NCBI GenBank assembly: GCA_001002765.1
Contig: LCMS01000010.1
Span: 123-64,122, forward strand
Length of the DNA stretch: 64,000 nucleotides
Source: Candidatus Uhrbacteria bacterium GW2011_GWE2_46_68
Lineage (GTDB): Bacteria > Patescibacteriota > Patescibacteriia > UBA9934 > GWF2-40-263
Direction: 5' to 3'
How positions within the stretch are numbered: the first letter of the stretch is position 1; every line of letters begins with the position of its first letter. Shown here piece by piece: positions 1 to 64,000 of this stretch. The position numbers and the translations under genes were made by a program. The notes under the pieces are model-generated. The model worked only from the letters and a program-made list of their open reading frames with translations, was not told the origin of the DNA and did no database searches.

Positions 1-220
1 GACCCCCTCATGCGATTCTTGAAAAAAATATGTGACCGGTTCGCGTAAGGTTCTTTGATCATCAAACCCGTAGGTCTTATCACCTTCTTTTGTTCCGCGA
101 AGAACAGCTGTGTGAAGTTTGCTGGGCATGCCTGACTCCTTTGGAAAGAACTAAAATGGATCGTCACTTCAAGAGTGTCCCCTTAAAGCAGCGGTGAAAA
201 AGGGACAGTCTTGCTGTCCC

Positions 221-2016: not shown

Positions 2017-2131
2017 AAGAACCTCCGGTTGGAAAGAACGGTTTTCCCTTAAGCCCTGAACACAAAATTAGTTCAAGTCTTAAGGAAAAGGGTTAGAGGT
2101 TTGCTCTAACCCGCGTGTAGGCGTGATTGGC

Positions 2132-3274: not shown

Positions 3275-3423
3275 GGAACACTCCTTCTGCGACGCGAAGC
3301 GACCAGGCTCCGCTTTGGTGAAATGAACGAAGGGCTTTGGAAAGCCCATGAGGGACGGTTGATCACCATAGTTGGAGGGTTTCCCCAACGCAGGTGGTAA
3401 AAAGAGGAAGAACGTAATCTCCC

Positions 3424-4170: not shown

Positions 4171-4179
4171 GGCTGCTCC

Positions 4180-5838: not shown

Positions 5839-5914
5839 TTCTTTAACCCGAGCTCACAGGAAAACCTATGGTCTCGGGAGAAAGGCCATCACCGTCTGTG
5901 ATGGCTTTGGGGGT

Positions 5915-6874: not shown

Positions 6875-6884
6875 GACTGCCTCC

Positions 6885-8792: not shown

Positions 8793-9176
8793 GGCGCCTC
8801 CTTGGGAAACGGACGAAGTGTCCGATTGGTGAGTTGTTGACCCCTTGTAAGGAGCGTCAGAAGAGAGGTTTTTTGTCTCCAAACCCCTTCGTTCTGAACG
8901 CGAGACCTTAGGGTTTTTTGCCTAAAATGTCAACGATCTGTAGGCGAATCTTTAAGGAAAAAAACAAAAAAAGCCCATTTTTGGCCTCTTCTTGTTTATC
9001 CCTTTATCACACAGGATAAAACAGCAATGTTTGTAAAAAAATTCCACTTTGAATATTTGGTCTGATAATGTTCGTGATCTTTTAGGATAGCTACAGATGT
9101 GGTGTCAGGTCTGACACCAAAATACAAGAATACAAGGCAAAACAAAAAAGAACCTATAGGCTCTCTTTGAAAATTT

Positions 9177-9818
9177 CTATTCCCTTTTGGACGACCCTTG
9201 CTCTAACGTTTTATCTAAAAGGAACGTTTCGTCTCCTGCAAGTGAAGCAAGTGCGATGAAAACTGATCCGGACAACCTCACGGGAGTTTTAAGAATTTGT
9301 CCTAATGTCACGGCTGCCGCACGATGATGTCCTTCGACACAAACAATTTTTTTATGATCTTCACGCACAAGGCCTATCAACTCGGTCGGAGCAGGAAACT
9401 GCTTCATGAGTGACACAACGGCCGAATGATGAAGAAAAAAATCTTGCGGTTCGGGCAGGGCCAGCAACTCGGCAAACGATACTGTATTTTTCTCTTCTGT
9501 ATATTTCTGCCATCCGTTAAACGGCCCCATCAAAAGATTTGGCAAAAAAACTTGTGGATCTTTCACTTCGTATAATGCCCAAGCACGATCTTGAAGATGA
9601 AGTTGCAAAGCGGTGTGCACGCGCCAACTCTCCCAATTTGGCCACCCTTTGATCCTGGTCGCACACTCAACCCATGAAAAATTGTGTGCCTCGCGCTCTT
9701 TCCATCCTGCAAACACTTCTCCCCAACCAAGTGAACGGACAAAAGAAAGTTGTGATTCAAAATGGAACATAAGGAGGCTTCCAGTTCTTTTGAAAAATGG
9801 CCATGGAAAATAAGTCAT
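9177..9818 (-). CDS. hypothetical protein
   Basis: 213-aa ORF with local low-GC codon usage. No recognisable motifs. Confidence 0.4.
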   Translation of the reverse strand: MTYFPWPFFKRTGSLLMFHFESQLSFVRSLGWGEVFAGWKEREAHNFSWVECATRIKGWPNWESWRVHTALQLHLQDRAWALYEVKDPQVFLPNLLMGPFNGWQKYTEEKNTVSFAELLALPEPQDFFLHHSAVVSLMKQFPAPTELIGLVREDHKKIVCVEGHHRAAAVTLGQILKTPVRLSGSVFIALASLAGDETFLLDKTLEQGSSKRE

Positions 9819-10281
9819 GCCATCTTTTGTTTATGAATATTTCCTCTCTCATCCGCCCCTCCTCTACAAACCCCAAAAACTTATACAAACATATCGCTCG
9901 TTTATTTGCATCCACAACTCCCAAGTTCACCTTGTGTAATTTGAGTGTGCAAAATGCATAATCCAAAAGCCAAATCAATGCTTGCTTCCCATATCCTTTT
10001 CCGCGATACGCATCCTCTCCGATTGCGATAAAAAGTTCCGCGTTCCTGTTCATCTTCTGGATATTCGATAAGCCCATAAAACCAATGGGTTCATCGTCCA
10101 CACAAAAAGTAAAAAACTTTTTTTGTGAATTCTTTTTATAAGCCTCAAACCATTTTCTTTCTTTGGCAAGAGTTGTTTTCTCCCCAGAACAATCTCCAAT
10201 ATACTGACTGACCTGTGGGTTATTGAGCCACTTTACGCGAAGAGGAATATCAGATGATTTGTGTGGACGTACCTGCAACAT
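9757..10281 (-). CDS. GNAT family N-acetyltransferase (RimJ/RimL-like)
   Basis: Acetyl-CoA binding motif region (FIAIGEDAYRGKGYGKQALIWLLDYAF). The ORF track extends to 10353, but that would overlap the tRNA. The Met at MLQVRPH (ATG at 10279-10281 minus) is the more plausible start. Confidence 0.65.
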   Translation of the reverse strand: MLQVRPHKSSDIPLRVKWLNNPQVSQYIGDCSGEKTTLAKERKWFEAYKKNSQKKFFTFCVDDEPIGFMGLSNIQKMNRNAELFIAIGEDAYRGKGYGKQALIWLLDYAFCTLKLHKVNLGVVDANKRAICLYKFLGFVEEGRMREEIFINKRWHDLFSMAIFQKNWKPPYVPF

Positions 10282-10325: not shown

Positions 10326-10401
10326 TGGTCGGGCTGGCGGGACTCGAACCCACGGCCTCTGCGTCCCGAACGCAGCGCTCTACCTGCTGAGCTACAGCCC
10401 G
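10326..10401 (-). tRNA. tRNA-Pro: tRNA-Pro (anticodon CGG)
   Basis: The reverse complement reads CGGGCTGTAGCTCAGCAGGTAGAGCGCTGCGTTCGGGACGCAGAGGCCGTGGGTTCGAGTCCCGCCAGCCCGACCA. It has a 7-bp acceptor stem with a C1-G72 pair (typical of bacterial tRNA-Pro), a D-loop AGCTCAGCAGGTAGAGC, an anticodon stem-loop CTGCG-TTCGGGA-CGCAG (anticodon CGG), a T-arm GGTTCGAGTCC and an encoded CCA. Confidence 0.8.
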
Positions 10402-12375: not shown

Positions 12376-15300
12376 TTATAGCATGAACCGTTTCGCACCA
12401 TGATTGATCCGCAGGTCATACAGGCAGGAGCATCGGATTGATTATCAAACGTGGAGGTAAGACCGGTTGTTGTTTTCTCCGACTGCGCAAATAACGTGGA
12501 TTGTGCTTCAGGACTTTCTTCCACCGCCACGGTCACGACCTGTGGCTTGTTCACGGGCTCAGCCATGATATTACTGTCAGTCGGGTCTTCGGTGACATGC
12601 ACGCCCACGGTCATCTGCACATCCCGAGGTAAAAATTTCATGGCCAACCAACGAAACAAATAATCAATAATGGATTTGGCGATTCGAATTTGTGGGTTAT
12701 TCGTATAGCCTGATGGCTCAAAACGCATATGCACAAATTTATTGACCAACACTTCCAGCGGCACCCCATATTGCAATCCGATCGAAACCGATGTGGCAAA
12801 ACAATCCATCAACCCTCGAATCACTGACCCTTGCTTGGACATCGTGATAAAAATTTCCCCCGGCGTCCCATCATCATAGAGCCCCACATTGATATAGCCC
12901 TCATGACTACCCACACTAAACTTATGCGTGATCGAACGGCGCTCATCGGGCAAGCGGCGACGGCGCGGTTTATCCACAATGGATGGGGTAACTTTTGGCA
13001 CTACGGAAATCACGGATGCCGTGGTTTTTTCCGCCTCTCTAATCCCCTCTTCTTTTTGTCGATCCTCGTTTACCTTTTTGGAATCTTTTTCTTTTGTCGT
13101 CGTCAACGCTTGTTGACGTTTAGATCCATCACGATATACCGCAATCGCTTTGATCCCCATTTTCCATCCTTCCATATACACTTTTCCGATATCCTCCGGA
13201 GTAGAGTCGTGCGGCAAATTGACGGTCTTGGAAATGGCTCCGGAAATAAACGGTTGTACAGCCGCCATCATGCGCAAATGCCCCATATAGTGAATTGTGC
13301 GCTTTCCGTTGACGGGTTTGAACGCGCAATCAAAGACGGACAAATGCTCTTCTTTGAGATGTGGTGCACCTTCGATCGTATCATTGGTATCAATGTAAGT
13401 CGTGATATCGCGTTGCTGTTCCTCGGTATATCCCAATCGCTGTAAAGCTTCTTTCACACAACGATTCACAATTTTCATCATGCCACCACCCACAAGCCAC
13501 TTATATTTAACAAGCGCAATGTCGGGCTCCACTCCGGTCGTATCGCAGTCCATCAAAAAAGCAATAGTGCCGGTGGGAGCCAAAACGGAAATTTGCGCAT
13601 TGCGCGATCCATGCACTTCTCCATCCTCGACAACTTTATTCCAAATGAGACAAGATTCTTTGAGCAAAGCGGGATCAATCCCCTTCTCTTGCAAATGACA
13701 CGCTTCGTCGCGATGCATGCGCATCACTTGCAAAAACGAATCGCGATTCTTTTTATATCCCGCAAACGCTCCGCGCTTTTCCGCAATCTTTGTCGATTGA
13801 TGATAACAATATCCGCTCAACAGTGCTGTGATCGCTGCGGCAAGATTGCGACCTTCTTGCGAATCATAAGCATATCCGTGACTCATCAAAAGCGCACCGA
13901 GATTTGCATACCCAATCCCCAAGGAACGATAATCATGACTGTTGCGTTCAATCGCAGGGGTTGGATAACTTGAATTTCCCACAATGATTTCCATGGCTGT
14001 AATAATAATGCGGCTCACATGCTCAAATGCCTTTACATCAAACTCCATGCGACCGTTCACCTCTTTGCGCAACTTCATGAGATTCAGCGAGGCGAGATTA
14101 CACGCTGTGTCGTTAAGGAACATATATTCACTGCAAGGATTGCTCGCATGAATGCGATCGGTTCCTTTGCAGGTATGCCACGTATTGATGGTTGTATCGT
14201 ATTGAATCCCGGGGTCTCCGCACTGCCAAGCCGCATCACACATTTTTTTCATGAGATCTTTAGCACGATAACGCAAACTTTCTTTCCCTCCCACGACTTC
14301 ATGAGTGACCCATTCGCGATCATCTTCCACTGCGCGCATAAACTCATCGGTCACACGTACAGAGTGATTGGCATTTTGAAAAAACACGGAACTGTAGGCG
14401 TTGCCATCAATCGAACCGTCATACCCGGCATCCATAAGCGCCCAAGCTTTTTTTTCTTCAATCGCTTTTGCCGTAATAAAATCTTCAATATCAGGATGAT
14501 CGATATTCAAAATAACCATCTTGGCCGCACGACGCGTTTTACCACCGCTTTTTATCACCCCGGCAAAAGCGTCAAACCCACGCATAAAAGAAACCGGACC
14601 TGAAGCGCGCCCGTTGCTCCCGCGCAAATATTCTTGTTTGGAACGTAAAATGGAAAGATTCACTCCAGCCCCAGATCCTCCTTTAAACAACATGCCTTCG
14701 GTCACACACAAATTCAAAATGGACCGCATGTCGTCTTGCACCGCATTGATAAAACACGCAGAACATTGCGGATACGAATTCACACCCACATTAAACCAAA
14801 CCGGAGAATTAAATGCGGCCATTTGATTGGTAAGAATATACAAAAGTTCGTGCTCATACACGTCCGCATCTTCCTTGGTTTGAAAATATCCGTCACAACG
14901 CCCCCATTTTGCAATCGTATTGGCAACACGGGTCATGAGTTGTTTGACCGAAGATTCGCGTTCCGACTCCCCCACTTTTCCACGAAAATATTTTGACACC
15001 ACGATATTGGTGGCAGACTGCGACCACGATGCCGGAACCTCCACGCCTTTTTGTTCAAACACGGCCTCTCCTTTTTCGTTTGTGATGCGCGCATCGCGAA
15101 TATCCCAAACCATTTCATCAAAAGGATGCACTCCTTGGCGGGTAAAAAATCTGGAAATCACAAGCCCATCTCCATACACCGGCTCACGTGTACCAATGGC
15201 CGCCAGACTCTCGTACATGGCATAGTGTCTGGCCACATGAGGAAGGTTGTGATCAATAAAAGTAAGAGTAATCACGTCGCGGATATCGGAAAAACACGGT

Positions 15301-15864: not shown

Positions 15865-16512
15865 TCAAAACGGCATGGTGAGATTGATAACAGGTTGAGG
15901 GGCTATTTTTAAGGCAAAATCCACGGGAATCGCCTTTCTTTCTCCGCTCCTGTCCTCAAACGCGAGGGCTTGATACTTAAGTCCATACTCATACACCTCT
16001 TTGGTAACCCGCACATCGTCCAAACAGTATTGTTTGATCTTGTCCACTTCTCCCTGTTTCCACCACTCGATTGCCTGTAGGCCATGCCCTGTTTTTCGAT
16101 GCCCCACACTTGCGGCGGCTACATCATCCAGCTTGAGCCGAAACCCCAAGGCCTTTTGGATTTCCTCCAAAATATCGAGTTGTGGAAGCTTGAGGAGATC
16201 GCCTGCATAATAGTTATTCATGATAGGCAAATCAAAACTGCGAGAGTTATACCCGATCACTCGATCACAACGCTCCAACCGCGCCCAAAGGCGAGACAAT
16301 TCATGTTCCTCAAAGACCTCGAACGTATTGGTCTCGTAAAAATAAACGCCGACAACCGAGATTTTAAACTTTGTGTAGTCATTCTCGACGTCGGCAAAAC
16401 TATTTTGCGTTTCAATGTCCAATACCACTTCGTGCTTCATACGCGGCACAGTATAACGCAAGGAAGCGATTGGATCAAAATCAAATCTCCACAACAAAAC
16501 GCGAACCCGCAT
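15865..16512 (-). CDS. DEDD-family (DnaQ-like / RNase H-fold) 3'-5' exonuclease
   Basis: Exo I LDIETQN, Exo II GYNSRSFDLP and Exo III YCLDDV motifs in the 215-aa ORF. Confidence 0.6.
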   Translation of the reverse strand: MRVRVLLWRFDFDPIASLRYTVPRMKHEVVLDIETQNSFADVENDYTKFKISVVGVYFYETNTFEVFEEHELSRLWARLERCDRVIGYNSRSFDLPIMNNYYAGDLLKLPQLDILEEIQKALGFRLKLDDVAAASVGHRKTGHGLQAIEWWKQGEVDKIKQYCLDDVRVTKEVYEYGLKYQALAFEDRSGERKAIPVDFALKIAPQPVINLTMPF

Positions 16513-17736
16513 CGGTCGAAACGTAATCCTCCGGATTGTCTACTCTTGTAACAATCCGCTTATCGGTGTGATCCCAAAAAATATTTGGAACACCTTTTGC
16601 CATAAGGGACATACACCCCGCTACATTCATTGCCAAGCTCTTTTGATATTCATACTCGTCCAAAGGTTTTCCTGTAACCTCAAGATGGGTCATGAAAGCC
16701 GTGATCCAATCCTCAAGCGTCATACCCGACTCACCAAAATAAGGAGAGCTGGGGTCTTGTCTGGAGGCTTCAAGAAAATCAATGTCATGCTGAGGTGCGT
16801 ATCTTCCCTCTCGATCAGGCCGTGGGTTCCCCCCCCCCGCACCATTCCGATCTTTTCTTTTGTAATACCGCAAAATCCCGGGGCATCATCGTGTGGAGCC
16901 TGGAGAAGAAGGACTCGCCAGCCGGAAGCGAGTTTCCCTTGATCTTGATCTTCGGCTTCAAGGATTTCTTTTTTTGTTTTTCCACCATGCCCGGGAACGT
17001 AAAAACCGGCAGACGTTGGATGATACACGACGTTATCTATAATCAAGTCATGATCTTTAAAAATAAAACGAAAATGAGTTAAGACAAAATCAGGATGTTT
17101 CTTTCTATATTCCACCAAAAACTCTTGCACCACAGAAACAAAAAAGCCTAATCCCGTGGCAAAAGGAACGAGGAGGAGCCGTGTGAATCCTTGATCTTGT
17201 TTGATTTCGAGTGTTTCGCGACGTTCGTACAATCGTTTGGCGATTTGCTCCAAAGTGGGCACGGGTCGGGAAAGATTTTTCATGTGATCCAAAAAACCTT
17301 CCTTATGTAAAAGTTCAATTTGATCCTCGTATTGTTCACGAAGATTGTAAAAATTCTCGGCATACTCGAGAGTCTCTGCCAGACTCAACTCTTCTTTTGC
17401 CGGTTCTTTGTGTTTCACGAGATATTCAAAACGCTCAAGAAGATCGGCAAGTCGTTCGAGATCTGGAGTGGAGAGTTTACTGGTCGCCTCACGGAGAGCG
17501 GCAGGTTTGGTAAGGGATTCTTTGGAAATCCCGTGAGCTTTTGTAAAATCAATGATCTCTTGCCGCAGAGTTTCAAAGTGTGCGCGATGTTGTTCGGGCA
17601 AAGAATCACGGACACTTGAAACCGAATCCATGATGGCTTCGCCAAGAATTTCCGAAGTGCGTTTGACCCCCACCTCCGCAGGGGTGGCAGAGGAAAAAGA
17701 TTCTGAAGTTGGTCGAAAAAAAGAAACCATATTCAA
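16481..17736 (-). pseudogene. member of the multi-copy paralogous family, split by a frameshift at a G10 homopolymer (minus strand)
   Basis: ORF 16720..17736 encodes the conserved N-terminal domain (EAIMDSVSSVRDSLPEQHRAHFETLRQEIIDFTKAHGI...). ORF 16481..16873 encodes the family C-terminus (DPSSPYFGESGMTLEDWITAFMTHLEVTGKPLD) in another frame. They overlap at a run of 10 C (16829-16838). Confidence 0.6.
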
Positions 17737-21681: not shown

Positions 21682-22449
21682 TTAAAATAACGTGCGTTCC
21701 TCGGAATCTTTAATAAAAGCAAATGCCTCCTCTGCCGTATCCACGATGGAGACAAGATCCAGATCACCGGGCGCAATCGCTTGTTGAGTTTCCAATACTT
21801 GTGTCTTTATCCAAGCCCATAGAGGATCCCAATACTCCTTCCCCACCAAAATAACCGGGGTCTTTTGCATTTTGTGTGTTTGGATCAAGGTGATGATTTC
21901 AAAACATTCATCCAAAGTTCCAAACCCGCCGGGAAAATAAATATAGGCTTGAGCCGAAGCGGCAAGCATCACTTTGCGAGTGAAAAAATAATAAAACCCC
22001 CGACTGCGCTTTACATACGGATTGATGCGCTGTTCGGTAGGTAATTGAATATTAAGTCCGATGGATTCTCCTCCGTTCTCAAACGCTCCTCGATTGGCTG
22101 CTTCCATGATACCCGGGCCTCCGCCAGTGATCACCGTAAACTTATGCCTAGCCAACAGACTGCCAAGAGTGTATGCCTCGTTATACCAACGACTTCCTTC
22201 TCTTGTGCGTGCCGAGCCAAAAATTGTTACCTCACGGCTCGACTCGGATAAAAATTGAAACCCTTCCACAAACTCGGCCATAATACGAAAAATACGCCAA
22301 GTGATGTCATTCATGTTGGGCGGCTGTTTTGTCTCTTCGTGCTCCATGGTTGGAAGAGGAATGCGCACAGAGCCTTCTATCTTTTCCATGGTCTTTTCCA
22401 ACTCTTTGTGATGATTTTTTTTATGAAACATACGCTCCCATGATACCAC
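21682..22449 (-). CDS. LOG family protein (TIGR00730 Rossmann-fold nucleotide-binding / nucleotide 5'-monophosphate nucleosidase-like)
   Basis: Signature GGGPGIMEAANRGA...IYFPGGFGTLDE. Confidence 0.8.
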   Translation of the reverse strand: MVSWERMFHKKNHHKELEKTMEKIEGSVRIPLPTMEHEETKQPPNMNDITWRIFRIMAEFVEGFQFLSESSREVTIFGSARTREGSRWYNEAYTLGSLLARHKFTVITGGGPGIMEAANRGAFENGGESIGLNIQLPTEQRINPYVKRSRGFYYFFTRKVMLAASAQAYIYFPGGFGTLDECFEIITLIQTHKMQKTPVILVGKEYWDPLWAWIKTQVLETQQAIAPGDLDLVSIVDTAEEAFAFIKDSEERTLF

Positions 22450-22977: not shown

Positions 22978-24287
22978 TTAAACGATCACAGAGGAGCGAA
23001 CGCCGATGTTCTCATTCTGATCACCAGAACCTTCTATACCGAGGCAAACACAACGAACGCCATGATTCCAAAACGCGCTTAGTACAAGGACGGAGGAAGA
23101 AAAAAAAGCGCCTGTAAGACAACTGTAACTTTCAGTGTTTATTACATTATATGCATCATCAAGCGGCTCCTCTCTCTCAGAAAAGTGTGTCATAAAAGCC
23201 ATGATCCAGTCCTCTGGAGTCATACCGAACTCTTGAAAGTAAGGTGAGTCTGGATCGTCTTGAGCGTTTTGAAGAATGGAAAGATATTCATTGGGGGTTT
23301 TGTTTGCTTCAAGAGGAGGACGTGAAGTGAGCTTTCCTTGGGGTGTTCCTTGACCTTGTCGGGGAATAGAAGAAAAACCTATGGGAGTCTCCATGTCTTG
23401 GTCATCTAGGTTTGAAGGTTGAAAAAGATGAACGGTCCAACCGGGGGTTCCCAATCCCTTCTCTCCTGCCACCCCTGCGGAGGCAGGGGTCCATCGTCCT
23501 TCTGTTTGTTCTTCGAGTATCTGTGCTTTTGTTTTCCCCCATGACCTTTTTTTTGTAAAAGACTGTGGATAATAGACAAGGTTTGGAGAATCCCCCATGT
23601 CTGCTCCTTGATAGTCTTCCCACGTCCAGAGAGGATTGTTGATATCCAAATAAAAATCAGGATGGGACCCCTTATATCTAAGAATGAATCGTTTAAACGT
23701 TTCACAAAGGGAATCAAGGCTCATACCAAAGGGAACAAGGAGGAGTTTAGTAAAGCCTTGATCGTGTTTGGTGTGGAGAGTCTCACGGCGTTCAAACAGA
23801 CGCATGGCGATACTCCTTCTTTAAGTATTCCCGCTTCTTTAAGAAGGTTGAATTGAAAAGTGTATTGTTCACGAAGATGGTAAAACTCTTCGGCATACTC
23901 GAGGGCTTCGGCATAGTCTTCTTTCTTTGGTTCCCCATTCTTGAGAAGATATTCAAAACGTTCGAGAAGATTGGCAAGTCGTTCAAGGTCTTGGGTGGAG
24001 AGTTTGCTAGTAGCCTCACGGAGAGCGGCAGGTTTAGCAAGAGCAGCTTTGGGAATCCCATGAGCTTTTGTAAAATCAATGATCTCTTGTCGCAGAGTTT
24101 CAAAGTGTGCGCGATATTGTTCGGGCAAAGAATCACGAACACTTGAAACCGAATCCATGATGGCCTCATGGAGAGTAGCGGATAAAGGAGGTTCAGAAGA
24201 CAGCGTCCCCCTTCGTCCCGCCGTTGGCGGGACTTCGGAGGGACAGTTTTCACTTTTTGTGAAAACTGTTGGTCGAAAAAGAGACAT
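22978..24287 (-). pseudogene. member of the multi-copy paralogous family disrupted by an internal deletion/frameshift
   Basis: The N-terminal part (23721..24287) and C-terminal part (22978..23805) are in different frames. Alignment with the intact copy near 56400 shows loss of about 50 nt around 23800. Confidence 0.55.
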
Positions 24288-33625: not shown

Positions 33626-34876
33626 TTAAACGATTACCGAGGTACGTATACCAAGGTACCCGGAACGACTGCGATAGTTAGACCAGACGAAATTCACTTT
33701 CTGATCATTACAGTCCCAGTATGCACACGGTACTGAACTGATAAAAGAATATACAGCTCCTAAGAAACAACTATGACCTTCTATTCTTGTAGGGTTCCAT
33801 ATATCATCAAGAGGTTTTCCTGTTTCTTGAAGATGAGTCATAAAAGCTATGATCCAATCCTCGAGAGTCATACCGGATTCATGGGAGTAAGGGGAATCTT
33901 CCTTGTCTTTGCATGCTTGAAGAGTAGAAAAATATTCATTGGCGGATTGACCTATCTCAAGAGGAGGACGCGGGGTGAGGTCTCCTTGGAGTTTTCCTTT
34001 ACCTTGAGGAGGAATAAAAGCAAAACCTAAAGAGTTTGAATCTGACGGATTTGAGGGTTGGAGAAGATGAACCGTCCAGCCATTGAAAGAATCTGGATTG
34101 TTGTCTTGTGTCTCAAGTATCTGTGCCTTTGTCTTCCCTCCATGTCTATCTTCTGTAAAAGACTGTGGCTTATAGACAAGATTGGGAAAATTTCCTGTAT
34201 CTGCTCCTTGATATCCTTCTTCTTGTATCAAAAAAGAATCATTGGTTTTAGGGGCAAAGGTTGGATGAAATTGTTTGTAAGAGAGTAAGAATTGATCAAG
34301 GGTTTTTATAAGGACGTCAAGGCTCATGCCAAAGGGAACCAGAAGAAGTTTAGTGAAACCTTGTTCGTGTTTGGTTTGGAGAGTCTCACGGCGTTCGAAA
34401 AGACGGGAAGCGATTTGTTCGAGAGTGGGGATGGGGTACTTCTTACCGTCTATCCCTGTAATCGCTCCTTCTTTGAGAATACCTGCTTGTTCAAGGAGAG
34501 CGACTTGGGAAGTGTATTGTTTTTCGAGATGATAAAACTCTTCGGCATACTCACGAGCTTCGGAAAGTTTCTCTTTCATGGGTTCTTTTTTGACAATCAG
34601 ATACTTAAAGCGTTCGAGAAGATTGGCTAGTCGTTCAAGATCGGAAGTGGGGAGTTTGCTGGCAGCCTCGCGGAGAGCATCAGGTTTGGAAAGTAATTCT
34701 CTTGGAATATCGTGAGATGCTGCAAAATCAATAATCTCTTGTCGCAGAATGTTAAAATGTTCGTGGTGTTCTTTGGGAAGAGAATCACGGACACTTGAAA
34801 CCGAGGCAAGGACGGCTTCATGGAGAGCCGGTTCTATGGAATGAGCGGATTCGGGAGACGGTCGAGAAAAAGACAT
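33626..34876 (-). CDS. multi-copy paralogous family member (intact, 416 aa)
   Basis: Conserved family N-domain (LPKEHHEHFNILRQEIIDFAASHDI..., KHEQGFTKLLLVPFGMSLD, GWTVHLLQPS, GMTLEDWIIAFMTHLQETGKPLD). Variable C-terminal region. Terminal motif GIRTSVIV. Confidence 0.7.
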   Translation of the reverse strand: MSFSRPSPESAHSIEPALHEAVLASVSSVRDSLPKEHHEHFNILRQEIIDFAASHDIPRELLSKPDALREAASKLPTSDLERLANLLERFKYLIVKKEPMKEKLSEAREYAEEFYHLEKQYTSQVALLEQAGILKEGAITGIDGKKYPIPTLEQIASRLFERRETLQTKHEQGFTKLLLVPFGMSLDVLIKTLDQFLLSYKQFHPTFAPKTNDSFLIQEEGYQGADTGNFPNLVYKPQSFTEDRHGGKTKAQILETQDNNPDSFNGWTVHLLQPSNPSDSNSLGFAFIPPQGKGKLQGDLTPRPPLEIGQSANEYFSTLQACKDKEDSPYSHESGMTLEDWIIAFMTHLQETGKPLDDIWNPTRIEGHSCFLGAVYSFISSVPCAYWDCNDQKVNFVWSNYRSRSGYLGIRTSVIV

Positions 34877-38390: not shown

Positions 38391-39650
38391 TTAAATCATC
38401 ACCGAGGTGTGAACACCAAAAAGCTCGCTTCGACGGTTGGTGCCACTCTGACCAATCTCTACCCGTCGCCATGTATGATTCCAACACGCGTCTGATAAAG
38501 AGACAGCGTAAGGAAAAAGAGATCTCATAAGATAAGAAGCGCTTTCTGTATTGTTTACAATATTATCCAAAGGTTTTCCTGTTTCTTGAAGATGAATCAT
38601 AAAGGCTATAATCCAATCCATGGGAGTTAATCCGGACTCTAGAAAATAAGGGGAATCAGAATTGTTTTGAACCTCCCGAAAAATAGAAAAATACTCCGAG
38701 GGCGACTTTCCCGCCTCAAGAGAAGGGCGACCTCCTTGGGATGTCCCTTGACCTTCGCGAGGAATAGAAACAAAACCTTTGGAATACTGATCGGAGGGAT
38801 CCGAGGGTTGAAAAAGATGAACCGTCCAACCTGAAAAAAAATCTTCAGCATCTCTTTGTTTGTTAAGAATCTCTGTCTTCGTTTGACCCTGATGAGACCT
38901 ATCGAGAAACAATGGATCGTAAATAATTACGTTAGATCCTTTGGTATCCACTCTTTCGGAAAAACTTATAAAAAAAGGATTATTTGCATTGAGATCAAAA
39001 GAGGGGTGAACCTCTTTGTAGTCACGAAGAAATTGTTTAAGAACATCCGCAAGAACTTCGATGCTCATGCCAAAGGGAACAAGAAGGAGTTTGGTGAAAC
39101 CTTGGTCATGCTTGGTTTTTAGTTTCTCACGACGCTCAAACAAACGAACAGCGATTTGTTCCAAAGTGGGGATGGGATAGGTACGTTTATCTATACCTCG
39201 GATGGCTCCTTCTTCGAGAATACCGACTTGTTCAAAAAAGGAAACCTGAGAATTATATTGTTCCTTGAGGTGATAGTATTTCTCGGCATATTCAAGAGGA
39301 TCGGTAGGTTCTTTGGGTTCTTTCTTTACAATCAGATACTGAAAGTGCTCAAGAAGATAAGTGAGTCTCTCAAGGTCTGGGATGGAAAGTTTGCTGGTCA
39401 CCTCGCGCAGGAGGTCGGGTTTGGCGAGGGATTTTTTTGTGATCCCGTGAGCTTTTGTAAAATTAATGATCTCTTGTCGCAGAGTTTCAAAATGCGCGCG
39501 GTGTTGTTCAGGAAGAGAATCACGAATACTTGAAACCGAATCCATAATGGCTTCGCCAAGGATTTCCGAAGTGCGTCTAACCCCTACCTCCGCAAGGGCG
39601 GCAGACGGGGAAGATTCCAAACTTGGTCGAAAAAGAGACATAGATATCAA
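38391..39650 (-). CDS. multi-copy paralogous family member (intact, 419 aa)
   Basis: Family N-domain (EAIMDSVSSIRDSLPEQHRAHFETLRQEIINFTKAHGI...). C-terminal motif GVHTSVMI. First of three tandem copies. Confidence 0.7.
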   Translation of the reverse strand: MISMSLFRPSLESSPSAALAEVGVRRTSEILGEAIMDSVSSIRDSLPEQHRAHFETLRQEIINFTKAHGITKKSLAKPDLLREVTSKLSIPDLERLTYLLEHFQYLIVKKEPKEPTDPLEYAEKYYHLKEQYNSQVSFFEQVGILEEGAIRGIDKRTYPIPTLEQIAVRLFERREKLKTKHDQGFTKLLLVPFGMSIEVLADVLKQFLRDYKEVHPSFDLNANNPFFISFSERVDTKGSNVIIYDPLFLDRSHQGQTKTEILNKQRDAEDFFSGWTVHLFQPSDPSDQYSKGFVSIPREGQGTSQGGRPSLEAGKSPSEYFSIFREVQNNSDSPYFLESGLTPMDWIIAFMIHLQETGKPLDNIVNNTESASYLMRSLFPYAVSLSDACWNHTWRRVEIGQSGTNRRSELFGVHTSVMI

Positions 39651-39653
39651 AAG

Positions 39654-40946
39654 TTAAAGCATCACCGAGGAACGCACACCAGTATCCACAACCCAACCAA
39701 GAAGACTATTCCCGAAGAGATGAATCCGACGACTGCCACGGCTCCAACGCGCTCTTGGCACAAGGTAGGAGAAAAGAAAAAAAGCACCTGTAAGATTAGA
39801 GGCGCTCTCTATGCCATTTAGATAGTCATCCAGTGGTTTTCCTGTTTCGGAAAGATGAATCATAAAGGCTGTGATCCAATCTTCCGGAGTCATACCTGTT
39901 TCACCATGATAGGGAGAATCTTTATCGTCTTGAGCATTTTGAAGAATGGAAAGATATTCATTGGGAGTTTTGCTTGCTTCAAGAGAAGGACGAGGGACGA
40001 GGTCTCCTTGGGATGTTCCTTTACCTTGTCGGGGAATATGAGCAAAGCCCATGGGAGCTTCAGTATCTTGTGAGTCAGAGTTTGATGGTTGAAAAAGATG
40101 AACCGTCCAACCGGGAAAGGAATCTTGATTGTCTTCTTGTTCCCTAAGTATCTCCATCTTGGTCTTTCCTTGATGACCCTTTTCATCAAAAGACTGTGGA
40201 TAATAGAAAAGATTTGGAGAATCCCCCGTGTCTGCTCCTTGATAGTCTCCCGATGTGAAGAGAGGCATGCTGGTATCAAGATCAAAAGAGTGGGACTTTT
40301 TATATTTGATGAAAAATTGTTTGATGGTTTCTTGGAGAGCATCAAGGCTCATCCCAAAAGGAACGAGAAGAAGTTTGGTAAAACCTTGGTCGTGTTTGGT
40401 TTTGAGAGTCTCGCGGCGTTCAAACAGACGAGAAGCTATTTGTTCGAGAGTTGGCACGGGATATTCATGACCGTCTATACCTAGGATGACTCCTTCTTTG
40501 AGGATGCCCACTTCCTCAAGAAGCTCTACTTGAGAATCGTATTGCTCACGAAGATGATAAAACTTCTCTCCATACTCAATGGCTTTGGCAGGGTCTATCT
40601 CTTCTTTCTTTGGTTCTCCATTCTTGAGAAGATATTCAAAGCGTTCGAGAAGGAGAGCGAGTCGTTCAAGGTCTTGGGTGGAGAGTTTGCCGGTCACCTC
40701 GCGCAGGAGATCAGGCTTGCCAAGAGATTCTCTTGGAATCCCGTGAACCTCGGTAAAAGTGATGATCTCTTGTCGCAGAGTTTCAAAGTGCGCGCGATGT
40801 TGTTCGGGCAAAGAATCACGGACACTTGAAACCGAATCCATGATGGCCTCACCAAGGATTTCCGAAGTGCGTCTAACCCCTGCCTCCGCAGGGACGGCAG
40901 AGGAAAAAGATTCTGAAGTTGGTCGAAAAAAAGACATAGATATCAA
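39654..40946 (-). CDS. multi-copy paralogous family member (intact, 430 aa)
   Basis: Family N-domain. Terminal motif GVRSSVML. Separated by 3 bp from both flanking paralogs. Confidence 0.7.
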   Translation of the reverse strand: MISMSFFRPTSESFSSAVPAEAGVRRTSEILGEAIMDSVSSVRDSLPEQHRAHFETLRQEIITFTEVHGIPRESLGKPDLLREVTGKLSTQDLERLALLLERFEYLLKNGEPKKEEIDPAKAIEYGEKFYHLREQYDSQVELLEEVGILKEGVILGIDGHEYPVPTLEQIASRLFERRETLKTKHDQGFTKLLLVPFGMSLDALQETIKQFFIKYKKSHSFDLDTSMPLFTSGDYQGADTGDSPNLFYYPQSFDEKGHQGKTKMEILREQEDNQDSFPGWTVHLFQPSNSDSQDTEAPMGFAHIPRQGKGTSQGDLVPRPSLEASKTPNEYLSILQNAQDDKDSPYHGETGMTPEDWITAFMIHLSETGKPLDDYLNGIESASNLTGAFFLFSYLVPRARWSRGSRRIHLFGNSLLGWVVDTGVRSSVML

Positions 40947-40949
40947 AGG

Positions 40950-42299
40950 TTAAATGATCACCGAGGAACGAGCGCCGGCGTTCTTGTCGTCATCACGAAG
41001 ACTGCTCCTACTGAGGCAAGCTTGTCGTTCAAAACGCCCCCAACATGCATTCGATGTAGGAATGGAAAGAGGGAAAAAAACTCCTGCAAGACAAGAAATG
41101 CTTTCTTTATTATTTTGCCAGTTATCCAATGGTTTTCCTGTTTCAGAAAGATGAATCATAAAGGCCATGATCCAATCTTCCGGAGTCATGCCTGTTTCAC
41201 CGTGATAGGAAGAGTCTTTATCACCTTGAGCTTTTTGAAGAATGGAAAGATATTCAATGGGAGATTTTCCTGTTTCAAGAGGAGGTCGAGGGACGAGGTC
41301 TCCTTGAGGTGTTCCTTGTCCTTCTCTGGGAATAGAAGAAAAGCCCGGGGAATGTGGATTGGAAGGATCAGAAGGCTGGAGAAGATGAACGGTCCAACCG
41401 GGGGTTCCCTCTCCCTTCTCTCCTGCCACCCCTGCAAAGGCAGGGGTCCATCGTCCTTGGGCTTGTTCCTTAAGTATCTCCATCTTGGTCTTCCCCCCAT
41501 GACCCTCTCTTGTAAAAGACTGTGGATAATAGACAAGATTTGGGGAATCCCCTGTGTCTGCTCCTTGATATCTTGGCCATGTCCAGAGAGGAATACTGGT
41601 ATCAAGACCAAAAGAGGAGTGGGACTCTTTATATTTGATGAGAAATTGTTTGAGTGTTTCTCTGAGAGTATCAAGACTCATCCCAAAGGGAACAAGAAGA
41701 AGTTTGGTAAAACCTTGGTCGTGTTTGGTTTTAAGTTCCTCACGGCGTTCAAACAGACGTATGGCGATTTGTTCCAAAGTGGGGATGGGATAGATTTTAC
41801 CGTCTATACCTAGGATAGCTCCTTCTTTAAGTATTCCTGCTTCCTCAAGAAGCTCTACTTGAAAATTATATTGTTCACGAAGATTGTAAAGACGTTCAAT
41901 TTCTTGAAGATGTTTCGGAAGTTTTTCTTTCTTTGGTTCCCCGTTCTTGAGAAGGTATTCAAAACGTTCGAGAAGATCGGCAAGTCGTTTGAGATCTGGA
42001 GTGGAGAGTTTGCCGGCGGCCTCGCGGAGAGCGGAGGGTTTGGAAAGTGTGTCTTTGAAAATCCCATGAACCTTTGTAAAATCAATGATCTCATGTCGCA
42101 GAGTTTCAAAATGCGCTCGGTGTTGTTCGGGAAGAGAATCGCGGACACTTGAAACAGAATCCATGATGGCTTCACCAAGAAGTGCAGAAGACACCGGATC
42201 CCCGCCTGTGCGGGGATGACGGTTGCGGGAAGAGTGTGACTCCACAGGGGTAACGGAGGAACGAGGAGAAAATTCAGGAGATGAACGAACGAAAGACAT
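40950..42299 (-). CDS. multi-copy paralogous family member (intact, 449 aa)
   Basis: Family N-domain with a divergent leader. Optional insert GRWTPAFAGVAGEKGEGTP. Terminal motif GARSSVII. Confidence 0.7.
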   Translation of the reverse strand: MSFVRSSPEFSPRSSVTPVESHSSRNRHPRTGGDPVSSALLGEAIMDSVSSVRDSLPEQHRAHFETLRHEIIDFTKVHGIFKDTLSKPSALREAAGKLSTPDLKRLADLLERFEYLLKNGEPKKEKLPKHLQEIERLYNLREQYNFQVELLEEAGILKEGAILGIDGKIYPIPTLEQIAIRLFERREELKTKHDQGFTKLLLVPFGMSLDTLRETLKQFLIKYKESHSSFGLDTSIPLWTWPRYQGADTGDSPNLVYYPQSFTREGHGGKTKMEILKEQAQGRWTPAFAGVAGEKGEGTPGWTVHLLQPSDPSNPHSPGFSSIPREGQGTPQGDLVPRPPLETGKSPIEYLSILQKAQGDKDSSYHGETGMTPEDWIMAFMIHLSETGKPLDNWQNNKESISCLAGVFFPLSIPTSNACWGRFERQACLSRSSLRDDDKNAGARSSVII

Positions 42300-55591: not shown

Positions 55592-56752
55592 TTAGATGAG
55601 AACCGAGGTGCGAATACCTCTATACCAATAAGTACCGTACCCTTCATCCAATATTGCCTCATGGCAATCTCTATCCCAATAGGCTAGAGGTAAGTAAAGA
55701 GCAAAAGGAAAAAAGGCCCCGATAAGATAGGATTGTTTTTCCATACCGTTTTTATAATCATCCATTGGTTGTCCCTTTTCTGTAAGGTGGGTCATAAAAG
55801 CAATGATCCAATCTTCGGGAGTAAGTCCTGTTTCACCATGATAGGGAGAGTTTTTATCACCTTGAGCTTTTTGAAGAATGGAAAGATATTCATTGGGAGA
55901 TTCTCCTGCTTCAAGAGGAGGTCGAGGGACAAAGTCTCCTTGGGGTGTTCCTTGGCCTTTGCGGGAAATGGAAGCAAAGCCCGGGGAATCTGAATCAGAA
56001 GGATTCGAGGGTTGGAAAAGATGAACAGTCCACCCTGGAAAGGAATCTTGATTGTCTTCTTGTTCTTTGAGTATCTGTGCTTTTGTCTTTCCTTGATGAC
56101 CTGTCAGATCAAAAGACTGTGGCTTGTAAACAAGGTTTGGGGAATCTCCTGTGTCTCCTCCCCACAATGCACAAAGAGATTCATGGGCATTGAGATTAAA
56201 AAAAGAATTCTTTTGTTTGTAAGCAATAAGAAATTGTTTGAGGGTTTCTTGGAGAGCATCAAGGCTCATCCCGAATGGAACAAGGAGGAGTTTGGTAAAA
56301 CCTTGGTCGTGTTTAGTAGAAAGTTCCTCGCGGCGTTCAAACAGACGCATGGCGACTTGTTCCAAGGTGGGGATGGAATAGGTATTACCATCTATGCCTA
56401 GGATAGCTCCTTCTTTGAGTATTCCTACTTCCTTAAGAAGGTTAAATTGAAAAGTGTATTGTTCACGAAGACTATAAAGACGTTCAATTTCTTGAAGATG
56501 TTCAGGGAATTTTTCTTTCTTTGGTTCCCCATTCTTAAGAAGATACTCAAAGCGTTCAAGAAGGAGAGCGAGTCGCTCAAGATCTGAAGTGGAGAGTTTG
56601 CTAGTAGCCTCGCGCAGGAGGTCAGGCTTACCAAGAGATTCTCTAGAAATCCCGTGAGCTTTTGTAAAATCAATAATCTCTTGTCGTAAAGTTTCAAAGT
56701 GTGCGCGATATTGTTCGGGCAAAGAATCACGGACACTTGAAACCGAATCCAT
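55592..56752 (-). CDS. multi-copy paralogous family member (386 aa; leader removed by deletion, starts at the conserved MDSVSS)
   Basis: Family N-domain and terminal motif GIRTSVLI. Upstream remnant MSLCGTKGDSVF* shows a deletion relative to the leader of the copy at 24287. Confidence 0.65.
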   Translation of the reverse strand: MDSVSSVRDSLPEQYRAHFETLRQEIIDFTKAHGISRESLGKPDLLREATSKLSTSDLERLALLLERFEYLLKNGEPKKEKFPEHLQEIERLYSLREQYTFQFNLLKEVGILKEGAILGIDGNTYSIPTLEQVAMRLFERREELSTKHDQGFTKLLLVPFGMSLDALQETLKQFLIAYKQKNSFFNLNAHESLCALWGGDTGDSPNLVYKPQSFDLTGHQGKTKAQILKEQEDNQDSFPGWTVHLFQPSNPSDSDSPGFASISRKGQGTPQGDFVPRPPLEAGESPNEYLSILQKAQGDKNSPYHGETGLTPEDWIIAFMTHLTEKGQPMDDYKNGMEKQSYLIGAFFPFALYLPLAYWDRDCHEAILDEGYGTYWYRGIRTSVLI

Positions 56753-56837
56753 GATGGCTTCGTGGAGAGTAGCGGATAAAGGAGGTTCAGAAGACAGAGT
56801 CCCCCTTCGTCCCGCAAAGAGACATAAATATCAAAGG

Positions 56838-58109
56838 TTAAACCACCACCGAAGACCGCAAACCAATGGCCCCAACCCGAGTACGAGGACCACCCCTGTC
56901 GAGGTTAGCCCGACAGCTATCACGGCTCCAAGACACGCAAGGCACACGGGAGGAGAAGCGAAAAAAAACTCCTGTAAGGTAAGAGATACTTTCTTTGTTT
57001 GTGGGATTCCATGCATCATCAAGAGGTTGTCCTGTTTCAGAAAGATGAATCATAAAAGCTGTGATCCAATCTTCGGGAGTCATGCCTGTTTCACCATGAT
57101 AGGGAGAGTCTTTGTCACCTTGAGCTTTTTGAAGAATGGAAAGATATCCATTGGGGATTTTACCTGCTTCAAGAGGAGGTCGATCCCTCCCTTCGCGAAG
57201 GGAGGGATGGGGTGTTCCTTGGCCTTCTCTGGGGATGGGAGCAAAGCCTTTGGGAGTTTCAGTGTCTTGTTCGTTCGGGTTTGATGGTTGAAGAAGATGA
57301 ACAGTCCAACCGGGGGTTCCCAATCCCTTCCCTCCTGCCACCCCTGCAAAGGCGGTCCCGCCTGTGGCGGATCCCGCCGTAGGCGGGAGGGTCCATCGTC
57401 CTTTGGCTTGTTCCTTAAGCATCTCCATCTTGGTCTTTCCTTGATGATCTTTCGGATCAAAAGACTGTGGATAGTAGACAATGTCTGGAAAATCTCCTAT
57501 GTCTGCTCTTTTATATCCTTCACCCGTCCAGAGAGGATCTTCGGTATCAAGATCAAATGAGGAGTGGGACTCTTTATATTTGAGTAGGAATTGTTTGAAG
57601 GTTTCTCGGAGAGTATCAAGGCTCATGCCAAAGGGAACAAGAAGAAGTTTGGTAAAGCCTTGGTCGTGTTTAGTCTCGAGAGTCTCACGGCGTTCAAACA
57701 GACGCATGGCGATTTGTTCCAAGGTGGGGATGGGATAAGTGTTACCGTCTATGCCTAGGATGGCTCCTTCTTTGAGGATGCCTACTTCTTTAAGAAGGTT
57801 AAATTGAAAAGTGTATTGTTCACGAAGATTGTAAAGACGCTCAACTTCTTGAAGATGTTTAGGGAGTTCTTCTTTCTTTGGTTCCCCATTCTTAAGCAGA
57901 TATTCAAAACGTTCAAGAAGGAGAGCGAGTCGTTCAAGATCTTGGGTAGAAAGTTTTTTTGTAGCCTCGCGCAGGAGGTTAGGCTTGCCAAGAGATTCTC
58001 TGGAAATCCCATGAACTTTTGTAAAATCAATGATCTCTTGTCGCAGAGTTTCAAAATGTGCGCGATATTGTTCAGGTAAAGAATCGCGAACACTTGAAAC
58101 AGAATCCAT
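56838..58109 (-). CDS. multi-copy paralogous family member (423 aa, starts at MDSVSS)
   Basis: Family N-domain. Insert with tandem palindromic units (TLPPTAGSATGGTAFAGVAGGKG). Terminal motif GLRSSVVV. A leader remnant without a start codon abuts the uvrD stop. Confidence 0.7.
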   Translation of the reverse strand: MDSVSSVRDSLPEQYRAHFETLRQEIIDFTKVHGISRESLGKPNLLREATKKLSTQDLERLALLLERFEYLLKNGEPKKEELPKHLQEVERLYNLREQYTFQFNLLKEVGILKEGAILGIDGNTYPIPTLEQIAMRLFERRETLETKHDQGFTKLLLVPFGMSLDTLRETFKQFLLKYKESHSSFDLDTEDPLWTGEGYKRADIGDFPDIVYYPQSFDPKDHQGKTKMEMLKEQAKGRWTLPPTAGSATGGTAFAGVAGGKGLGTPGWTVHLLQPSNPNEQDTETPKGFAPIPREGQGTPHPSLREGRDRPPLEAGKIPNGYLSILQKAQGDKDSPYHGETGMTPEDWITAFMIHLSETGQPLDDAWNPTNKESISYLTGVFFRFSSRVPCVSWSRDSCRANLDRGGPRTRVGAIGLRSSVVV

Positions 58110-58192
58110 GACGGCTTCGTGGAGAGTAGCGGATAAAGGAGGTTCAGAAGACAGAGTCCCCCTTCGTCCCGCCGTTGGCGGGACTTCGTTTA

Positions 58193-62925: not shown

Positions 62926-64000
62926 TTAAATGATCACTGAGGAACGTAAGCCAAATCCAATATCTGCAATATCACAACGATGACTTCCCGCATAGACCTG
63001 TAACAAACTGGAGTTCCAATCCATAAAAGGCGTACGAAGAGAAGAAGGAAAAAAAGCTCCCGTAAGATAAGAGGTATTTATGTCGCGAGTTAATGATGCA
63101 TCTATGGGTTTTCCCGTTTCTACAAAATGTGTCATAAAAACCATGATCCAATCTTCAGGAGTGAGGCCGGATTCTTGGAAGTAGGGGGAGCTAGAGTTGC
63201 CTCGAGCTTCTTCAAGAATGGAAAGATATTCCGTGGGAGTTTTGTTTGCTTCAAAAGGGGGACGGAAATTCTCGTCTCCTCGGAGTGTTCTTTGGTCTTT
63301 TTGGGAAATGGTGGCAAAGCCTTTGAGAGTTTTGGTATTTGAGGGTTGAAAGAAATGAGCCGTCCAGCCTGGAAAAAAATTTTGGTTATCCTCTTGTCCC
63401 TCAAGTATCTGCATTTTGGTCTTTCCTCGATGACCATTTTCTTCAAAAAACTTTGGATAATAAACAAGACTGGGAGTATCTCCTCTGTCTGCTCCTTGAT
63501 AACGCTTCTGAATGGCAAAAGAATAGGAATCGCTAATATCAAGATCGGGATGAGACTCTTTGTAAGAAAGAAAAAATTGTTTGAACGTTTCTATGAGAAC
63601 ATCAAGGCTCATACCAAAGGGAACGAGAAGGAGTTTGGTAAAGCCTTGGTCGTGTTTGGTGCGGAGGATTTCTCGGCGTTCAAAGAGACGAATGGCGATT
63701 TGTTCGAGTGTGGGGATGGGATAGGTATTACCATCTATGCCTTTGATCGCATCACCCATGAGAATCCCGACTTGTTCAAGAAGTTCGACTTGAGAATCGT
63801 ATTGTTCTTTGAGGCGATAGTGTTCCTCGGCATACTCAAGGGCTTCTTTGTTTGTCCAAGGTTCCTTCTTAACAATGAGGTGTTCAAAGCGCTCAAGAAG
63901 ATTGGCAAGCCGCTCGAGGTTGGGAGTGGAGAGTTTCTCGGCAGCTTTGCGGAGGAGATCGGGTTTGGCAAGCGCTTCTCTTGGAATCCCTTGAGCTTGT
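62926..64000 (-). CDS. multi-copy paralogous family member, 5' end beyond the window edge
   Basis: The reading frame is open from 62926 to the window end. The upstream in-frame translation (…LSTPNLERLANLLERFEHLIVKKEP…) matches the family N-domain. Terminal motif GLRSSVII. Confidence 0.6.
   Translation of the reverse strand, partial: QAQGIPREALAKPDLLRKAAEKLSTPNLERLANLLERFEHLIVKKEPWTNKEALEYAEEHYRLKEQYDSQVELLEQVGILMGDAIKGIDGNTYPIPTLEQIAIRLFERREILRTKHDQGFTKLLLVPFGMSLDVLIETFKQFFLSYKESHPDLDISDSYSFAIQKRYQGADRGDTPSLVYYPKFFEENGHRGKTKMQILEGQEDNQNFFPGWTAHFFQPSNTKTLKGFATISQKDQRTLRGDENFRPPFEANKTPTEYLSILEEARGNSSSPYFQESGLTPEDWIMVFMTHFVETGKPIDASLTRDINTSYLTGAFFPSSLRTPFMDWNSSLLQVYAGSHRCDIADIGFGLRSSVII

Follow-up and report, generated by a model that had tools for sequence, protein, structure and literature searches.

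The 64-kb window analysed here (the whole stretch of DNA under study) belongs to Candidatus Uhrbacteria bacterium GW2011_GWE2_46_68, a groundwater bacterium of the Candidate Phyla Radiation (CPR). It carries nine paralogous genes, A to I, which code for proteins of about 430 amino acids (aa) each and make up about 18% of the window. We consider it probable that the leader and the N-terminal domain of these proteins are kept alike by short-tract gene conversion between the paralogs, while the C-terminal two-thirds retain paralog-specific divergence. A preliminary description of this DNA had suggested non-reciprocal recombination among the copies, and five independent lines of evidence support it: a synonymous deficit near the 5' end, an excess of identity within samples, recombination tests with shared tracts, a shuffled gene in another sample (L011) and patches of clustered substitutions between near-clonal assemblies. 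Mosaic structure, concerted evolution restricted to one region, strain-level patches and homology to the targets of diversity-generating retroelements (DGRs) were observed directly. Concerted evolution by segmental gene conversion is a known process in bacterial multigene families, and the present case is a new example of it, from a CPR family which lacks annotation and is related to the variable proteins of DGRs.

The nine copies share one orientation. Tandem arrays are formed by C-D-H and by E-F, and other copies are scattered among housekeeping genes. They share a 5' core, which had been described as almost identical over about 180 nucleotides (nt) in six of them. The segment is real and belongs to minus-strand genes. 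Its plus-strand positions were correctly given as 17552, 24079, 39466 and 58030, while 40759 and 56690 should read 40762 and 56673. The list was also incomplete, since the cores of G (34731) and H (42085) had been missed. A ninth paralog, I, runs past the window end. Near-identity was an overstatement: over the first 99 nt pairwise identity averages 0.84, with 0.80-0.95 among the seven copies other than G and I and 0.74-0.78 between these and G, and the mean falls to 0.75 over the following 81 nt and to 0.68 over a further 99 nt downstream.

The excess similarity of the core is nevertheless real, as seen at synonymous sites and third codon positions. In the codon alignment the core (IMDSVSSVRDSLPEQHRAHFETLRQEIIDF) has a proportion of synonymous differences (pS) of 0.30-0.35 and a proportion of nonsynonymous differences (pN) of 0.07. 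The HDQGFTKLLLVPFGM motif is conserved equally (pN 0.04) yet has a pS of 0.56, and most other windows of the alignment have a pS of 0.5-0.68. Uniform synonymous divergence without mosaic blocks, which the preliminary description had named as the contrary outcome, is not what the alignment shows. Third-position identity is about 0.75 in the core vs about 0.56 over the next 90 codons. At positions with identical amino acids, codons differ less often in the core than in the rest of the gene, both within the window (0.23 vs 0.37, p=0.02) and against closely related samples (0.21 vs 0.32, p=0.01); against distant samples the difference (0.30 vs 0.37) is not significant (p=0.12). The similarity of the 5' core thus exceeds what protein constraint explains.

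An antisense ORF (MISCRRVSKCAR...) recurs in the cores. It had been counted five times, while in fact there are six occurrences (17552, 24079, 39466, 40762, 42085 and 58030); in E its ATG is replaced by ATA. This ORF is a by-product and can be ruled out as a real gene, because the sense frame is the one under selection (pN/pS 0.22) and the ORF ends differ with the leader in which they fall.

The comparison across samples covered 123 distinct family genes from 14 samples, found in 80 metagenome loci. A scan of genome contigs gave distant relatives only and no Uhrbacteria genomes. Identity within samples exceeds identity between samples by 0.037 at columns 28-62 of the hidden Markov model (HMM) and by 0.074 at columns 62-105 (label permutation, p=0.001), and third positions taken by themselves also show a significant excess near the 5' end. 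Over the other 320 codons the two values are +0.006 and +0.001, neither of them significant. A sliding window of 20 codons confines the signal to columns 20-120 (p≤0.003), with a peak at columns 60-80 (z=8.3). Columns 20-120 correspond to the helical N-terminal domain, a part absent from more distant homologues. Homogenisation had been ascribed to near-identical 5' ends; the zone is in fact the whole N-terminal domain, about 360 nt, and the peak lies downstream of the core singled out earlier. In the 3' two-thirds third-position identity is equal within samples (0.58) and between them (0.57-0.58), therefore the paralogs predate the splits of the lineages. A segment more alike within than between lineages, synonymous sites included, next to segments that are not, is the mark of concerted evolution, and the cross-sample pattern fits concerted evolution of the 5' third rather than a universal nucleotide constraint.

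The preliminary description had proposed tests for recombination breakpoints and a comparison of strains or populations for shuffled combinations; statistical tests do support recombination, and a shuffled combination does occur. The pairwise homoplasy index (PHI) test on the six intact copies is highly significant (p<0.0005), and a Sawyer-type runs test finds shared tracts in three pairs: H-E at codons 370-383, E-F at 141-154 and D-E at 283-316 (global p 0.007-0.04). With the runs test limited to the 5' half no pair is globally significant, the pairwise p for A-D being 0.0007. In a nearest-neighbour scan the closest partner of each copy changes repeatedly over the full length, with blocks of 90-100% identity in a background of 60-75%. 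Orthologues of D occur in other samples, in L009 at 96% and in L011 at 85%; the L011 gene joins this D-like body to a 5' core that resembles the one of C (identity 96%, and 97% at third positions). Since partner switches and shared tracts run along the whole gene, exchange reaches beyond the 5' end, where it had been placed; the 5' third is the most homogenised part, but conversion patches occur in the 3' two-thirds too.

The longest exact matches between copies are 60 nt (E-F), 56 nt (A-D), 52 nt (A-E), 48 nt (D-E), 42 nt (B-E) and 40 nt (B-F), all in the leader or core, where most of the longest perfect matches fall. Exact matches of 40-60 nt are of the length expected to support homologous recombination. 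At the other end of the gene, the last 30 or so codons of the nine copies are only 38-63% identical and have a pN/pS of 0.7-0.9.

Paralog A illustrates the unequal similarity along the gene. Its core is 0.95 identical to that of D, including an exact 56-nt match at 17582-17637, whereas identity to the other copies drops to about 45-58% in its middle and is only 45-70% over its body. Despite the divergent middle, its leader and core are among those most similar to D and E. The frame split of A is identical in four assemblies, and its start is likely the ATG at 17730. An A-like subtype is found in another sample too (ORJL).

Another assembly, evidently of the same population (ANAN16-1 scaffold_748), is represented by loci L091 and L100, which jointly cover positions 17615-50841 of the window. 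L091 differs from the window at nine positions in 21,188 nt, and all nine lie within a single patch in D. L100 differs by nine substitutions in 14,062 nt, all of them in a single patch in B and causing only one amino-acid change. All 18 substitutions over about 33 kb thus make up two patches, both in genes of the family. The alternative D allele is found unchanged in L009, L011 and L022 and the window allele again in L089 and L090; for B the alternative allele is identical in L022 and the window allele reappears in L098 and L099. Each allele of both patches is shared, without a single mismatch, by two to four assemblies that come from different projects and samples. Where genomes are otherwise identical, clustered and mostly synonymous patches of 40-55 nt are the pattern expected of short-tract gene conversion.

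Each protein consists of a short leader built from in-frame palindrome cassettes, followed by a helical domain of about 120 codons at the N-terminus that is specific to Uhrbacteria, by a core common to many other Patescibacteria and by a hypervariable C-terminal end. We suggest that repeated non-reciprocal homologous recombination, presumably of the RecA type and with tracts of 40-55 nt, would homogenise the leader and the N-terminal domain within a lineage. Since the leader and the 5' core hold most of the 40-60 nt runs of perfect identity, they would be the best sites for strand invasion, and palindromes may promote the process. Smaller conversion patches would shuffle segments further downstream in the gene. 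The expected outcome is that variant binding proteins, all built on one shared N-terminal module, are maintained as a standing repertoire; they may serve as variable ligand or host binders.

Several points weigh against gene conversion as the explanation. The effect is moderate, with cores 80-95% identical and a within-sample excess of identity of just 3-10 points, and in this comparison a sample stands as a proxy for a genome. None of the collected sequences is an exact donor of the window allele of either patch (D or B). All sequences are consensus assemblies of metagenomes, which visibly fail at these repeats, therefore some of the mosaicism could be chimeric. The family-wide pS of the core is lowish (0.42-0.49) and a hairpin is predicted in its mRNA (z -2.3), so some constraint at the nucleotide level may contribute. 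If constraint were the whole explanation, the core nucleotides would be held without recombination by selection on the mRNA, e.g., on a hairpin near the start which controls translation, together with strong protein constraint. The D core does fold better than its shuffles, as the above z-score indicates, a consensus hairpin is 88-90% paired over 116 distinct sequences (mostly by wobble-preserving changes), and the family-wide core pS is slightly under that of most other windows. We nevertheless find this explanation unlikely. Covariation is not significant in a covariance model of 123 instances (0.165 vs 0.162 in shuffles, a value reached by 78 of 500 shuffles), and Rfam has no match in the 5' core. 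Constraint predicts equal similarity within and between lineages, whereas the observed similarity is higher within samples, only in the N-terminal 120 or so codons and with a peak downstream of the hairpin; the synonymous deficit is not significant against distant lineages. Clustered patches of nine substitutions and shuffled combinations of core and body are not explained by constraint either. RNA structure may add a little constraint, but the lineage-specific, patchy patterns are not explained by it.

Less probable still is that mosaic blocks, leader differences and patches are all artefacts of assemblers which collapse near-identical repeats or cross over between them, although trouble at the repeats is evident. 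The window matches the NCBI contig LCMG01000012.1 (GCA_001002565.1) apart from a few indels: it has 35 extra nt at 44616-44649 and lacks 22 nt of the E leader (56790-56815), 27 nt of the F leader (about 58175) and 16 nt in mid-B (about 23810), where L098 and L100 hold 47 nt absent from the window. The F leader has three states among otherwise identical assemblies, in L093 5' cores are interrupted by NN gaps (at about 7636 and about 8872), and the contigs of L094 and L095 end at the E core (window 56668 and 55882). Assembly errors, however, would hardly give both alleles of both patches without a mismatch in assemblies from different projects and samples; the difference within vs between samples rests on 123 copies in many contigs and depends on the gene region, and chimeras between differing copies cannot yield a reduced pS. 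The remaining explanation, recent lineage-specific duplication with undiverged 5' ends and a rest that diverged fast under diversifying selection, we regard as highly improbable and as largely refuted already. Tandem arrays do exist and the high pN/pS of the last 30 or so codons would agree with it, but downstream synonymous divergence is near saturation (pS 0.5-0.68), so divergence is not confined to replacement sites. Recent duplication would raise synonymous similarity within a lineage everywhere, yet third positions of the 3' two-thirds are equally similar within and between samples, and D has clear orthologues elsewhere (L009 and L011). Two programmed systems were also rejected. Antigenic variation from one expression site and silent cassettes (of the pilE/pilS, vlsE or msp2 type) does not agree with six copies in the window being complete ORFs with start codon and leader (B, too, is intact in other assemblies). 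A shufflon or invertible cassettes driven by a site-specific recombinase would not leave all copies co-oriented, and no recombinase, transposase or reverse transcriptase (RT) was found among the window genes. Short-tract gene conversion thus remains our preferred explanation, with assembly quality at these repeats as the main uncertainty.

The same assembly problems bear on apparent pseudogenes. The leader ATG of E, out of frame in the window, is in frame in the NCBI version, a full in-frame leader of F is present in L093, and B is intact in L098 and in L100 (452 aa). The leader of E had been described as partly deleted, and only a remnant of it is indeed present in the window, but neither this deletion nor the missing start of F nor the frameshift of B is seen in other assemblies of the same population. 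The window versions of B, E and F, apparently truncated, may be assembly artefacts or real population variants which change the frame or the start codon. Since independent assemblies break at or near the 5' cores, the family is likely under-counted and mis-joined in public metagenome-assembled genomes. The practical warning is that such repeats break and distort metagenome assemblies, and that apparent pseudogenes among them may not be real.

The leaders all start with MS(L/F)FRP and end with L(G/H)EAIMDSV, with discrete inserts in between. Two mosaic classes of leaders had been noted, A/C/D and B/E/F. Both are borne out, as type I with the insert SSAxPAEAGVRRTSEI and type II with VFTKSENCPSEVPPTAGRRGTLSSEPPLSAT, and two further types are added by H, which has an insert of its own, and by G, which has none. 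The same types recur across samples, where composite and nested forms exist as well. The inserts contain palindromes: GTCCCGCC-AACG-GGCGGGAC, CCCTGC-GGAG-GCAGGG, ATCCCCGC-ACAG-GCGGGGAT and the AT-rich ACAGTTTTCAC-AAAAA-GTGAAAACTGT. The GC-rich palindromes have stems of 6-8 bp and loops of 3-5 nt. They are located in reading frames at two fixed sites, in the leader and in mid-gene, are found in both orientations and encode linkers of low complexity (PPTAG..., AGVAGEKG...).

The mid-gene site, between the GKTK and PGWT(V/I)H motifs, is hypervariable. It has at least five insert types (none, PT-repeats, GDDG-repeats, GRWTPAFAGVAG... and GRWTLPPTAGSATGG...), which add 0 to 36 residues and some of which share palindromes with the leaders; examples are seen at 41400-41480 in H and 57330-57400 in F. 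As these types are common to several samples, their distribution is independent of lineage. Of 113 matches to the four hairpin patterns in 600 kb of loci, 105 are in or beside family genes, which rules out a genome-wide mobile hairpin element similar to a miniature inverted-repeat transposable element. We can only speculate that the palindromes may promote recombination or switch expression.

No Pfam or NCBIfam family matched the paralogs. With a deep alignment, including homologues from Magasanikbacteria, Colwellbacteria, Wolfebacteria and others, AlphaFold gave a model with a mean confidence (pLDDT) of 90.2; with a shallow alignment the model was unusable (pLDDT 52). A profile search against PDB sequences returned spurious helical matches only, and Foldseek found no match to PDB or to viral structures. 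The superfamily comprises 992 representative clusters, in which the domain is nearly always C-terminal.

Two distant homologues were looked up in their own contigs, and both belong to DGR loci. L104 encodes bAvd and an RVT_1 reverse transcriptase and has a template repeat at 13151-13261; all 16 mismatches between this repeat and two family genes have A in the template. In L106, which has bAvd, RT and a template repeat as well, 20 of 22 mismatches are A-specific. A third locus, L003 (1-4200), comes from another Patescibacteria genome and contains two tandem family copies with a 470-nt stretch of 100% identity between divergent 5' and 3' flanks. At their 3' ends these copies differ at 11 positions, ten of which have A in copy 2, and a bAvd homologue lies between them. 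Copy 2 has no stop codon where copy 1 ends, its frame continuing well beyond, and the locus may represent a template repeat embedded in a gene.

The window family is homologous to DGR targets and has its variable region at the C-terminus. The same script that detected the positive controls L104 and L106, however, found no RT, bAvd or template repeat in the window or in 80 loci of Uhrbacteria (about 550 kb), and on this ground a DGR was rejected as the cause of variation in the window. The variable ends of the nine copies are also too different from one another to have had one common template, though a DGR may be present elsewhere in the genome. Judging from these sequences, the Uhrbacteria family is probably an expanded branch of the DGR-target superfamily, in which diversity would be stored in paralogs and reshuffled by recombination.

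Parallels can be drawn with several known systems. In Helicobacter pylori the outer-membrane paralogs babA/babB/babC and sabA/sabB swap segments by gene conversion (reviewed in PMC4534519). As in Uhrbacteria, these are full-length, separately expressed, dispersed paralogs of a small genome, with conserved ends serving as homology and a variable part which is thought to bind ligands. The proteins are unrelated, however, concerted evolution in Uhrbacteria affects the 5' third only, and the organism is an environmental CPR bacterium and not a pathogen; a surface location of the Uhrbacteria family is putative. In Borrelia hermsii (vsp/vlp) and Anaplasma (msp2/p44) an expression site is altered by segmental gene conversion via conserved flanks (PMC4534519). 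These systems and ours have in common that the gene starts with a short conserved 5' block, that conversion tracts are short and that divergent copies form a repertoire, but the former have one expression site and promoter-less or truncated silent copies, while the Uhrbacteria family has at least six complete ORFs and no evident expression site. The mycobacterial PE/PPE proteins also combine a conserved helical N-terminal module (about 100-180 aa) with highly variable C-terminal parts in many recombining copies; the likeness is one of layout. Their N-terminal module is a secretion signal. The palindromic elements of Rickettsia resemble the Uhrbacteria cassettes in being short palindromic modules inside ORFs, translated as an extra peptide in either orientation; the Uhrbacteria modules are much shorter (about 20-60 nt), nearly confined to one family and limited to two fixed sites.

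The genomes of CPR bacteria measure about 1 Mb. A life attached to hosts is assumed for these bacteria, with partner recognition largely unexplained. The family described here is a concrete candidate for variable surface or host-interaction proteins in Uhrbacteria. DGR variable proteins have a C-type-lectin/FGE-like fold, as in Mtd of a Bordetella phage and TvpA of Treponema, and DGRs are common in CPR bacteria (PMC8144416, PMC11661182). DGR systems rely on RT, bAvd and a template repeat, none of which was seen in the window or the Uhrbacteria loci, where diversity is held in many paralogs. This offers a natural comparison, within one protein superfamily, of retroelement mutagenesis with paralog expansion and gene conversion as routes to diversity. 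It is conceivable, and we put it forward only tentatively, that Uhrbacteria replaced the retroelement hypermutation of a C-type-lectin-like binder with a germline repertoire of tens of conversion-reshuffled paralogs on a common N-terminal module. The palindromic leader cassettes would then be recombination initiators or on/off switches acting through the frame or start codon, and the whole would constitute a system for varying host or ligand recognition in a CPR episymbiont. Literature searches returned no paper that describes, for Uhrbacteria or Patescibacteria, either gene conversion or a multigene family.

Table 1. Family genes, 5' cores, substitution patches and palindromes in the window
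Feature	Position	Strand	Description
Paralog A	16481..17736	-	Divergent body in two overlapping frames, ORFs 16720-17736 and 16481-16873; type I leader
Paralog B	22978..24287	-	Type II leader; split in window by 47-nt gap at about 23810
Paralog G	33626..34876	-	Most divergent copy; short leader without palindrome cassette
Paralog C	38391..39641	-	Type I leader; first gene in tandem array C-D-H
Paralog D	39654..40937	-	Type I leader; in tandem array C-D-H
Paralog H	40950..42299	-	Third leader type, palindrome ATCCCCGC-ACAG-GCGGGGAT; mid-gene cassette also present
Paralog E	55592..56815	-	ORF from MDSVSS 55592-56752; type II leader remnant upstream
Paralog F	56838..58184	-	ORF from MDSVSS 56838-58109; type II leader remnant upstream
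Paralog I	62926..64000	-	5' end beyond window; 437 aa in NCBI contig
5' core of A	17552..17650	-	Encodes ...EAIMDSVSSVRDSLPEQHRAHFETLRQEII
5' core of B	24079-24177	-	99 nt
5' core of G	34731-34829	-	99 nt
5' core of C	39466-39564	-	99 nt
5' core of D	40762-40860	-	99 nt
5' core of H	42085-42183	-	99 nt
5' core of E	56673-56771	-	99 nt
5' core of F	58030-58128	-	99 nt
D patch	39885..39937	-	53 nt, codons about 334-351, 3' third of D; 9 substitutions, window vs L091
B patch	24165..24204	-	40 nt in B leader, directly upstream of MDSVSS; 9 substitutions, window vs L100
GC-rich palindrome GTCCCGCC-NNN-GGCGGGAC	24215..24233	-	B type II leader, in-frame PPTAG
Same palindrome element as at 24215..24233	58166-58184	-	F leader
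Related palindrome	57372-57388	-	Mid-gene cassette of F
Mid-gene palindrome cassette CCCCTGC-AAAG-GCAGGGG	41423..41460	-	H; encodes GRWTPAFAGVAGEKG; between GKTK and PGWTVH motifs
Mid-gene cassette site, same as in H	B about 23466-23500; F about 57335-57395	-	Occupied
Further palindromes	40878-40893, 42200-42215, 17665-17695		

The protein UX57_C0010G0042 of Candidatus Uhrbacteria bacterium GW2011_GWE2_46_68 matches paralog D with 100% identity. Nearly all genes of the window are on the minus strand. Neighbours of the family include ribonucleotide reductase, HflX, a CtpA-type protease, glycosyltransferases, S8 peptidases, PcrA and YceG; the PcrA/UvrD-type helicase is the sole recombination-related protein among the window proteins. 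An Rfam scan of the window gave a single match, a tRNA gene at 10329-10401 on the minus strand, and a look-up of the gene at 21682-22449 gave no record. Four ORFs without Pfam matches are located at 34880-38380 and 42926-45052, between paralogs G and C and beside H; three of them (121, 489 and 560 aa) are on the minus strand and one (708 aa) on the plus strand, and the 560-aa ORF has a faint STT3-like match. Positions 1-10000 have a G+C content of 0.50-0.58 vs 0.43-0.48 elsewhere in the window and code for parts of ABC transporters and OmpA-, VWA- and NMT1-like proteins; this part may be a foreign or differently constrained segment.

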